Below are positions 20,001 through 23,000 of a stretch of DNA of 64,000 nucleotides, piece by piece. Position 1 is the stretch's first letter, and each line of letters begins with the position of its first letter. The position numbers were made by a program, and so were the translations under genes. This stretch comes from Octopus sinensis (Eukaryota), in contig NC_042998.1 in assembly GCF_006345805.1 (NCBI RefSeq), positions 86,800,001 through 86,864,000 on the forward strand, given 5' to 3'. The notes below the pieces were generated by a model, which was not told where the DNA came from, did no database searches, and saw only the letters and a program-made list of their open reading frames with translations.

Positions 20001-23000
20001 TTTTAAAAAATTGATCAAATAGAAATTGAATCAAACTTTCTGTTACTATGTTTATGGTACATTGACCTATTCAGCAAGCTACAGTAAATAGTTTATTATA
20101 GATTTGATCATAAAAGAATTACACTACTTTATATTTCTATTTCATTGTTTGAACCAATGTTTCATATGCCATACCAGATACTTCAATATGAATATTTTTT
20201 TTGTTATGTCAGCTGCCACCAGTGATTTGCCTCAACAAATAAAAGTAAAGGAAAATCAAAACCCTGGTAAGGAAATTTTTGTTTAATACATCAACTTAAT
20301 TTTGATTCTTTTGAAGACACAGTATATATTCATTTCATAGGGATACATTTAGAAAAGATTTATAAGAACGATAAACTTTAGCTACACCATTACCTTCATA
20401 TATATATATATCTATATATATAAAACTGAGAATGTCTGTCTGTATGTGTGCATCACTAAAACTCGAGAACTACCCAAGCGATTTCATTCAAATTTTACAC
20501 ATGCATTACTTAGGGTCCATGGAGTGTCATGCAGCCAGAAATGTTTCAACTTCTTGCTTAATGCGAGCTCGGAGCAATGTATTGACTGTTTCGGTATTGT
20601 GTGTCAAAAGGGAAACAATAACAACTCTCTTGTAATGTGAGATAATAGTTCCACTTTTAATAGTTTCACTATGTATACAATATATACAAAGTGAAACTAT
20701 CATTTCATTACATATATACATGCATATATACTTACATATATACATGCATATATGTATATATATATATATATATATATATATATGTATATATATATATCGT
20801 GACGTATATTTGCCATCTCAATATGGCTACCCCTAAGGGTGGATGCTACTGTAGTTTTTAGCCCCAGGAGGACACACTCCTCCAGCTGGCCATAGACACA
20901 CTTTCTGTGTCCTGTCAGTATTTGCAAAGGGAAGTCATCCTTCCCGTCTTCAACTTATGATACACACGGACTCGAGTTTCGAGGTATTGACCTCTCGTCA
21001 GCGTGTGACAATCATAGTTGTCGGCGAGAATTAGATTTCCTTCACAAATACTTATACTTTTTCCAGCGTCCACTGTCGCTGATATTGAAAAAGTGAAATC
21101 AAACAATGATAAATATCAAAGTGAGTTATATACAGTAGCGGTAACACATCGTGACGTATATTTGCCATATATATATATATATATATGTAACATCAATGGA
21201 AATTGCGGCTGTGATACCAGTGCCGGTGACAAGTAAGCGAACCATCCGATTGTGGCCGTTGCCAGCGCCGCCCCGACTGGCCTCCGTGCCGGTGGCACGT
21301 AAAAGTACCATCCGTTCATGGCCGTTTGCCAGCACCGTCTGGCGCCTGTGCGGGTGGCACGTAAAAAGCACCCACTACACTCGCGGAGTGGTTGGCGTTA
21401 GGAAGGGCATCTAGCCATAGAAACACTGCCAGATCAGACTGGGCCTGATGCAGCCTTCTGGCTTCACAGACCCCAGTTGAACCGTCCAACCCATGCTAGC
21501 ATGGAAAACGGACGCTAAATGATGATGATGATGATGATGATATATGTATTAGAAGGTTTGGAGATGATGTACTGGTATTTTATATTACAAGAAATGAGGT
21601 ACTCAGAAATTCGGATGGTTTTATATTTACAGATATTTATTTGTATATTACATGTTTTTATACATCATATATCATGTATTAGCACTTTCGTCCATTCTAG
21701 TGGAGTTGGCAAATTGAACTAAGTTCTTGCAGAAATTTGACTCTTTTTATAGTGTTATTGAGTGTGTAGTGGTGGGGAGATATATAAGATAGTACAAGAG
21801 GGTGATGAATGGGGAGAAAGTGAGAGAGAGACCATGTGTGTGTGTGTGTGTGTTTTTGTATCTGAAAGTTGTGTTAAAGAGAAAGAAGGAAAACAAGAAA
21901 AGGGAGAGAAATAAGAAAAAAATTTTTGTTGATCTCTTTGTAGCTGGTCAGGCTGTTTACTCCAAGGGGGGCAAAATGTCACTTTTCAAAAACTTGTCTG
22001 GATTTCTTTTTTATCATTGTCTTGTGAGAGAGTGTGTGTGTGTGTGTATGTGTGTGTGTGTGTGTGTGTGTGTGTTTGTATCTGAAAAGGGTATTAAATA
22101 AAAAGAAGAAAAGGAGGAAGGAGAGAAAATTTGTTGATATCTTTGCAGTTGGTAGGTTTGTCAATAATAATTCTTGGCTTCTAGGGATTGTAAATCCAGG
22201 TGTTTACTACAAGGGGGGCAAAATGTCACTTTTCAATAAATTGTTTGTATTTCCTTTTTATGTGTCTGAAAGAAGTGTTAAGGTGGTATGGTCAAGTTGT
22301 CCATAACAATCAGTCCTTGGCTTTTAACAATGGTCAATCAGCTGGGGAGCCAAAATGTCACTTTTCAATAAATTGTTTGTATTTCCTTTTTATCATTGTC
22401 TTGTGAGAGAGTGTGTGTGTGGGTGTCTGGGTATCTGAAAGGAGTGTTAAATGGAAAAAAAGTGTTTATATTTTTGAAACTAAATGATTTTTGCCTTTTA
22501 GAAATTGGCCACTTCAAGTGGGGTAAAATGTCACTTCTCAAAAAATTGTCTGGACTTGTTTTTATTATTGTTTTATGAGTGTGTGTGTGCGTGTGTGTGT
22601 GTGTGTGTGTGTGTGTGTGTGCGTGCGTGTGTGTGTGTGTGTGTGTGTGCGTGTGTGTGTAGGTGCCTGTGAATCTGGAAGGGGTGTCGATGGAGAAGGG
22701 AAGAAAGAGGAAAAAGGGGAAGAAGAAATAATTGTGTTGATATTTATACCACTATTCAGTTCTTTCAATCCAATGTTTCATTCCTGTGTTTACATGAGAT
22801 GTAGAATCTGGATTAAAGATTGTTTTTATTTATGTATATGTACATATGTGTAGTGCTGTGTGTGTGTGTGTTTAATAAAATTTACTTTACAAATTTGGTC
22901 CTTCATCTAGTACAACTTATTATAGAAATATTTTCAGCCATTCAATTTGGGGGAGAACTTAGTTATGAAGTATTTTTCCATATTCCTCCTGAAGGAGGTG

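Follow-up and report, generated by a model that had tools for sequence, protein, structure and literature searches.

The systems closest to the locus described here are the metazoan non-LTR retrozymes, the double hammerheads of newt satellite 2 and ASBVd, and the minimal hammerheads of Penelope-like elements (PLEs). Metazoan non-LTR retrozymes are described as dispersed tandem arrays, the units of which measure 150–450 bp and have a canonical type I hammerhead, a GC content under 50 % and no ORF, and most of those from invertebrates are called efficient as monomers (Cervera and de la Pena 2020, PMC7229834); the coral and mussel monomer constructs reported there cleave at ∼0.8 and ∼0.1 per min, respectively. 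In the same source the axolotl motif HHR_Amex2, which has a stem of 2 bp closed by a tetraloop, was cleaved to 22 % within an hour when monomeric and to a far greater extent when dimeric. For newt satellite 2 and ASBVd a double hammerhead has been drawn (Forster et al. 1988, via PMC4209133, PMC6155905, PMC6466107 and PMC6765202), and this pairing was proposed to let multimers be cut while monomeric circles are kept from cutting. The minimal hammerheads of PLE pseudo-LTRs, in turn, are given a helix II of 7–8 bp, a helix I of 4–5 bp and an extra base before position 10.1 (PMC4209133). A palindromic helix III of 1–2 bp, its rescue by a double hammerhead, and the reading of such motifs as active in multimers and quiet in circles are thus all published (PMC4209133 and the reviews cited above). 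There is accordingly nothing new in the motif, in its palindrome or in the idea of a dimer, and the finding as the earlier note worded it is an ordinary one. In the openly accessible literature, some supplements excluded, we found no paper on a cephalopod retrozyme or an octopus hammerhead ribozyme.

A complete type I hammerhead is present on the minus strand at 21007–20963 of the window (the whole 64-kb stretch of octopus DNA analysed here), with its core intact and a GUC site in place. It was located both by a motif scan and by the Rfam model Hammerhead_1 (RF00163), which is covered over its whole length at exactly 20963–21007 with 32.2 bits and an E-value of 3.9e-6; the gathering score is 34, and a search of the window at gathering level returned no matches. 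A relaxed hammerhead scan of the window had this motif as its sole match. As 100 local dinucleotide shuffles gave 0.04 relaxed matches per window and none as strong as the motif itself, a chance origin was ruled out. On the minus strand, the proximal part of helix I comprises 6 bp (21007–21002 with 20968–20963), followed by the core strand CUGACGA (21001–20995), helix II (20994–20991 with 20984–20981, closed by the loop UCAAUA, in which a fifth U-A pair is possible) and the core GAA (20980–20978). Helix III has 2 bp, A15.1-C15.2 (20977–20976) pairing with G16.2-U16.1 (20971–20970) around the loop UCGA (20975–20972), and is followed by C17 (20969). The predicted cut, placed from the sequence, falls after the GUC at 20969/20968, which is unit position 200/201. 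Both the CUGANGA...GAAA core and the NUH triplet are therefore found in this motif, in agreement with the earlier note, which had reported all core nucleotides and a GUC site. Equally well founded was its description of a monomer stem III of 2 bp with a UCGA loop and a self-complementary strand: ACUCGAGU (20977–20970) is a perfect self-complementary palindrome, for which folding and loop covariation predict an 8-bp helix between two hammerheads.

Two other descriptions had to be revised. The hammerhead had been called minimal, yet in our folds helix I continues for ∼10 further pairs past an internal loop, UGU (21010–21008) facing U (20962), that is a candidate partner of loop II; the distal part pairs 21020–21011 with 20961–20951 with one bulge, giving an extended hammerhead at 20951–21020 on the minus strand, and loop II is Schistosoma-like. 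Furthermore, the palindrome had been presented as a special feature, whilst the Rfam Hammerhead_1 consensus itself has a palindromic helix III and such palindromes are usual for metazoan type I hammerheads as described in PMC4209133. In an alignment of related sequences that had been picked by core patterns, 87 % of the cells in helices I–III (with helix I open) were paired, and changes on both sides were seen in nine of 19 pairs. This level of pairing was reached by none of 500 shuffles, and slid controls gave 15–54 %. In distal helix I, the five pairs tested were 95 % paired over 20 subfamily sequences, two of them with both-side changes.

The hammerhead lies within an insertion, a setting that the earlier note had missed, as it had the continuation of helix I. 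This insertion, at 20796–21168, reads on the minus strand from 21168 down to 20796 and consists of one 352-bp unit (20817–21168) plus 21 bp of the next, or 1.06 units. The unit is bounded by a 21-bp direct repeat (20796–20816 and 21148–21168), has a GC content of 43 %, and contains, when read as a tandem unit, a longest ATG-initiated ORF of 38 aa. Its 3′ end (20796–20816, minus strand) is located at site A (unit position 21), one of two fixed end sites of the family, and is joined to (AT)n; the ‘tail’ of 43–46 nt between site A (unit 21) and site B (unit 64/67) is internal in this copy (21102–21147, minus strand). A TA-rich microsatellite flanks the insertion downstream in the ribozyme sense (20712–20795), and (TA)n is also found at the 5′ junction (21169–21186). 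The locus has one hammerhead only, with no second same-strand hammerhead nearby, so that no pairing in cis is possible. Moreover, with 1.06 units and one cut site, no unit-length RNA can be released from it, whatever the cleavage rate. We regard this lone copy as a likely dead-end product. As it has one cut site, and as single-hammerhead loci are the commonest class in our sample (see below), the near-silence that had been suggested for it is plausible, if unremarkable. The description of the copy as antisense is not supported, as we found no host gene to set a sense strand; the minus strand is all that is meant. The same insertion, with nearly the same flanks and with the same PLE fragment on its contig, also occurs at a second locus (L001, G000:C9003), which probably reflects haplotype duplication or a duplicated segment of the genome. 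Directly beside the retrozyme lies a copy (21190–21541) of a dispersed repeat with (GAT)n at its end, further copies of which are found at 2805–4285, 6969–7960 and 41843–43656; the copies are associated with fragments of what we take to be an RTE-like reverse transcriptase.

The unit belongs to a large family. A search of the octopus's own genome (2.7 Gb) yielded 2020 candidates, with 122 matches in the 40 that were scored, and full-length copies were 97–100 % identical. The 33-nt hammerhead core has 654 exact genomic copies (reversed control, 0), compared with 679 matches in a second core-pattern search; one further core search added little (eight matches, control one). Our locus sample consists of every locus (59 in total) to which the first 100 cores of the listing, on contigs C1 and C2, belong; it includes the locus at 20796–21168 and is, by construction, selected for an intact core. 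Single-hammerhead loci were the commonest class (29), followed by same-strand tandems (23) and loci with opposite-strand pairs only (seven). Arrays of the 352-bp unit contain up to seven units and no ORF, none of the 59 loci had an LTR architecture, and as to a tRNA-derived head, no tRNA gene was found in the 64-kb window. The element fits a young 352-bp non-coding tandem repeat, that is, a non-LTR retrozyme.

Insertions of this unit occur as tandem, 5′-truncated or inverted copies with two fixed 3′ ends. Among 92 arms of at least 60 nt, 51 end at unit positions 17–22 (site A), 32 at positions 60–68 (site B) and nine elsewhere, and AT repeats follow directly in 80 of the 83 arms that end at either site; 5′ ends, by comparison, are scattered over the unit. 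Of 31 single-arm loci, 25 have their end at site A, whilst head-to-head (divergent) pairs combine one A with one B end in 25 of 29, with no AA and no BB pairs. Sites A and B are also the ones mostly used by older subfamilies, which are roughly 70–89 % alike. The cut site (unit 200) was considered as a further insertion end, and this was not borne out: only four of 84 5′ ends lie near the cut, and no fixed 3′ end is found there. One arm that was cut by the locus edge was left out of the length counts. Of the 40 long arms that start at site A, 22 come to a stop no more than 66 nt beyond a complete unit (p 3e-7), as do three of 22 site-B arms. A circular template cannot be read from these arm lengths, the site-B arms being without the pattern and a local stop or microhomology explaining it equally well. 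Two further observations concern related hammerheads. In the older subfamilies (L031–L054 and L147–L158) the base of helix II is C-A or U-U, whilst the young family has a canonical G-C pair. In addition, a second hammerhead family (L132, L135–L138 and L164–L168) has AUGU or AUAU as its helix III loop, often with a GUU triplet, and is arranged in tandem with a period of ∼432 bp at L137.

Compared with the metazoan retrozymes of PMC7229834, the octopus unit shares the canonical type I hammerhead, the dispersed tandem arrangement and the size range, as well as a GC content under 50 % and the lack of an ORF. Its hammerhead has the same 2-bp helix III and tetraloop as axolotl HHR_Amex2, and the U-U pair at the base of helix II in the axolotl motif recurs in one of the older octopus subfamilies. 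The retrozymes of that study were, however, characterized through RNA, circles and cleavage, whereas the 352-bp element is known here from DNA alone and is predicted to need a partner. With newt satellite 2 and ASBVd, ACUCGAGU shares a helix III of 1–2 bp with a palindromic loop and the formation of one long helix between tandem copies; in contrast to those systems, the octopus element is a dispersed DNA retroelement, and covariation of its loop provides an additional line of evidence. Similarly, the minimal hammerheads of PLEs have in common with it the type I fold, palindromic 15.2-16.2 and loop 3 nucleotides and predicted dimers (Cervera and de la Pena 2014, PMC4209133). They differ, according to the same description, in having no defined loop 1; the octopus hammerhead has a helix II of 4–5 bp without an extra base, and a helix I of 6 bp followed by an internal loop and ∼10 bp.

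The consequences of the short helix III were explored by nearest-neighbour folding, the energies of which are uncalibrated (no control hammerhead of known activity) and exclude Mg2+, loop I–loop II contacts and co-transcriptional trapping. On this scale, the ACUCGAGU helix III is worth +2.9 kcal/mol as a hairpin and −10.7 kcal/mol as a duplex. The preferred fold of the monomer pairs core bases with the strands of helices II and III to form an inactive rod, and the active secondary structure lies above the ensemble by 6.6 kcal/mol at 37 °C and by 8.0 kcal/mol at 15 °C; the same lock on the core is predicted for a circular monomer. For a two-unit tandem, the unconstrained minimum is a double hammerhead, 1.2 kcal/mol above the ensemble compared with 17.4 kcal/mol for two single hammerheads, although this form requires the long helix I to swap partners, a step outside the energy model. 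When the palindrome was broken with a non-complementary loop the double form rose to 8.8–9.6 kcal/mol above the ensemble, and with a CCGG or UGCA loop it stayed near 1 kcal/mol. Across 37 distinct tandem pairs from the fetched loci, which are near-identical copies of one family and hence not independent, the double hammerhead with a shared 8-bp helix was the MFE structure in 30 and not in the remaining seven, and it was cheaper than two single hammerheads in all 37. Rescue of a lone copy in trans was rejected: pairing of two 75-nt motifs is predicted to be weak (−4.7 kcal/mol, with a crude Kd of ∼0.5 mM), and two full-length copies pair elsewhere in the predicted folds, not via helix III.

Variation in loop III offers a second view of the same pairing. 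Three search patterns that jointly leave nearly the whole loop free gave 235, 330 and 353 matches, respectively (control 0 for each), and loops were counted by hand in the first 100 matches of each. With the first pattern we found CCGG 59 times, along with CUGG (11) and CCAG (nine), the 20 forms of CpG decay on either strand; with the second, UGCA accounted for 81; and with the third, UCGA and UCGG for 43 and 42. All four of the principal loops (CCGG, UCGG, UCGA and UGCA) are self-complementary if G-U pairs are allowed, a property of 36 of the 256 tetraloops, and CCGG, UCGG and UCGA are connected by a single-step path through wobble. Between UCGA and UGCA the adjacent central bases are swapped (CG/GC), and as these cannot pair inside one loop, the swap points to pairing between copies. 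Complementarity of the two loop ‘pairs’ in alignment A1 is 95 % and 85 %, with both-side changes in eight and seven of 20 rows; the four loops represent only about three ancestral changes, and independent events are few. In an unrelated family with the loop AUGU or AUAU (203 matches, control 13), ∼61 of the first 100 matches were self-complementary. The CCGG-UCGG-UCGA-UGCA series, as a pattern in sequence, would thus lend added support to pairing in the dimer. Along with the folding results, this loop covariation supports, at the level of prediction, the earlier suggestion that cleavage is favoured in dimers.

The reading that we consider reasonably probable, based on these models, is that a complete hammerhead in a one-unit retrozyme insertion would cleave efficiently only as a double hammerhead of neighbouring units. 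In the lone hammerhead, the 2-bp helix III would be unstable and the core locked in the inactive rod. When two units are transcribed in tandem, their ACUCGAGU strands would come together in one 8-bp helix, and the strands of helix I would swap partners, so setting up both cut sites. Arrays of at least two same-strand units might then be transcribed and cut to 352-nt monomers, which would likely be circularised; both the monomers and the circles would be shielded from a second cut. Nicking of (TA)n would likely be the work of a Penelope-like reverse transcriptase/endonuclease, which would prime at two internal sites 43–46 nt apart, and such two-site priming could give rise to tandem, truncated and head-to-head copies. 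Strict dependence on the dimer is unproven by such models; that the dimer is clearly faster than the monomer is a claim to which we would give fairly good credence.

The foremost alternative is that the hammerhead is competent as a monomer, with loop I–loop II contacts and Mg2+ holding the junction and the palindrome only adding speed, in which case a minus-strand transcript across the locus would be cut. The internal loop starting in U, the lone 3′ pyrimidine and the (U)CAAUA of loop II ending in A do resemble the Schistosoma arrangement, in which the final A of the loop CAAAUA forms a pair with the U that opens internal loop 1 (PMC2632901); loop II of the octopus motif ends in CAAUA. Moreover, the bases of the internal loop and loop II show little or no variation in alignment A1, in which the AATA of loop II was fixed by the search patterns, and the coral and mussel retrozyme monomers cleave efficiently (PMC7229834). 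Nevertheless, we consider monomer competence unlikely, given that self-complementarity has been kept through changes of the loop, including the central CG/GC swap, that the monomer is predicted to misfold, and that the axolotl motif with a helix III of the same size performs far better as a dimer (PMC7229834).

A less probable alternative still, which we judge improbable, is that neither form cleaves well without protein, that uncut RNA is copied, and that the ribozyme is helped by a protein or has a late role, as reported for the anole Poseidon element. The Poseidon hammerhead cleaved only in the presence of its protein and was not required for insertion in vitro (PMC11167929), eight of nine Xenopus retrozyme dimers are given as inactive in a 2026 preprint, and the scarcity of insertion ends at the cut site noted above would suit weak cleavage. 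Insertions that pass the cut site are, however, equally expected from a ligated circle, and the sample was selected for an intact core. In disagreement with weak cleavage, furthermore, subfamilies that are 70–89 % alike have retained the core and the helices, and compensatory changes are seen among them.

With respect to mobilisation, the partial tandems, the inverted 5′ copy, the tail, the TA bias and the two fixed 3′ ends of the family argue for PLEs, and we consider it likely that the 352-bp retrozyme is copied by a Penelope-like element. All of the PLE-type marks are present in the family: 5′ truncation, partial tandems, an inverted 5′ copy, a tail with two 3′ ends and a microsatellite target. 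Tail, inversion and TA bias have been described for PLEs (PMC8557442), and two internal priming sites were shown in vitro for Poseidon (PMC11167929). Poseidon of Anolis (PMC11167929) and the Hydra/Naiad clades (PMC8557442) thus share with the octopus unit tandem, 5′-truncated and inverted copies, a two-site tail and (TA)n targets; unlike them, the unit encodes no protein, and its tail is 43–46 nt long compared with their 30–40 nt. PLE mobilisation of retrozymes is only proposed in the text of PMC7229834, whereas the two fixed 3′ ends and the inversions seen here point to PLEs. The insertion ends therefore add support to an idea so far argued from co-occurrence and pseudo-LTR similarity.

The window itself contains, at 62400–63400 on the plus strand, a decayed PLE with a C-terminal endonuclease, 35–44 % identical to the protein of a young Hydra-type PLE, and a near-copy of this fragment is found at G000:C2:86747517. 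The nearby CTGATGAG (63879–63886) may be a hammerhead remnant of the decayed PLE, with no GAAA half seen. The decayed copy served as the starting point for finding the young Hydra-type family (L118:2964–5114 on the minus strand, and L119–L131), which has ORFs of ∼700 aa and open frames of up to 717 aa. A Pfam search of four proteins returned no families; the motifs RWK, DKT, CxCx5C, CxxC and CxH are present in the young family and are marks of the Hydra clade. The young PLE inserts in (TA)n, with inversions and with two 3′ ends ∼67 nt apart, compared with 43–46 nt in the retrozyme. Its pseudo-LTR has a variant hammerhead-like motif with a CCGAAGA core, a near-palindromic helix III and an odd central base. 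No DNA alignable at E ≤ 1 was shared by the unit and 14 PLE loci (mostly of one Hydra-type family), and the young Hydra-type PLE is thus a candidate partner only. Using tblastn with the Hydra-type PLE protein against 144 non-PLE loci, we found four with any match, all of them short fragments; at one locus (L008) a retrozyme copy is placed among fragments of a PLE reading frame (matches at 40–252 and 1144–1437). That the unit is a pseudo-LTR remnant of an autonomous PLE, and not a self-standing non-autonomous family, is very improbable: retrozymes do resemble PLE pseudo-LTRs in Xenopus (2026 preprint, bioRxiv 10.64898/2026.07.22.740005) and the insertion signature is identical, but against this stand the ORF-free arrays reaching seven units, the scarcity of PLE protein matches and the absence of a DNA match to the PLE loci just described.

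Returning to the double hammerhead as the form that would cleave efficiently, a more tentative extension is that the palindrome and the built-in misfold of the monomer constitute a copy-number switch, in which only arrays of at least two units would cut out unit RNA, and monomers or circles would lock their own core. We regard this as possible, if somewhat doubtful. If true, it would account for the resistance of animal retrozyme circles to self-cleavage, it would leave an uncut circle as the template for a Penelope-type enzyme with two fixed starts, and it would make the CCGG-UCGG-UCGA-UGCA series a record of selection for pairing between copies. The predicted monomer lock bears in any case on a puzzle raised in PMC7229834, namely why the circles of animal retrozymes are not opened by the ribozyme that they carry. 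The family is a clean test case, being young, with 654 exact cores and with natural monomer and dimer loci, and the four self-complementary loops are ready-made compensatory pairs; it thus represents a convenient system for studying dimer-gated cleavage.

As regards transcription, 20 of the 24 sequence runs listed for the unit contain half or more of its sequence words, and none of the runs is on record as RNA. Contigs of four runs on the unit display end-to-start joints, which genomic tandems would give equally, and these contigs convey no strand, ends or level. In a control stretch (23500–28900), contigs of the same number of runs cover mainly other repeats, with no clear exon, and one of these repeats has far deeper contig cover than the retrozyme. 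A short repeat at 28170–28490 of the window has a very high contig depth in all four runs and is probably a high-copy SINE. Lastly, at 30532–30767 and 31715–31950 we observed the arms of a 236-nt inverted repeat, 98 % complementary and 947 nt apart, which is possibly a young foldback or MITE element (30532–31950).
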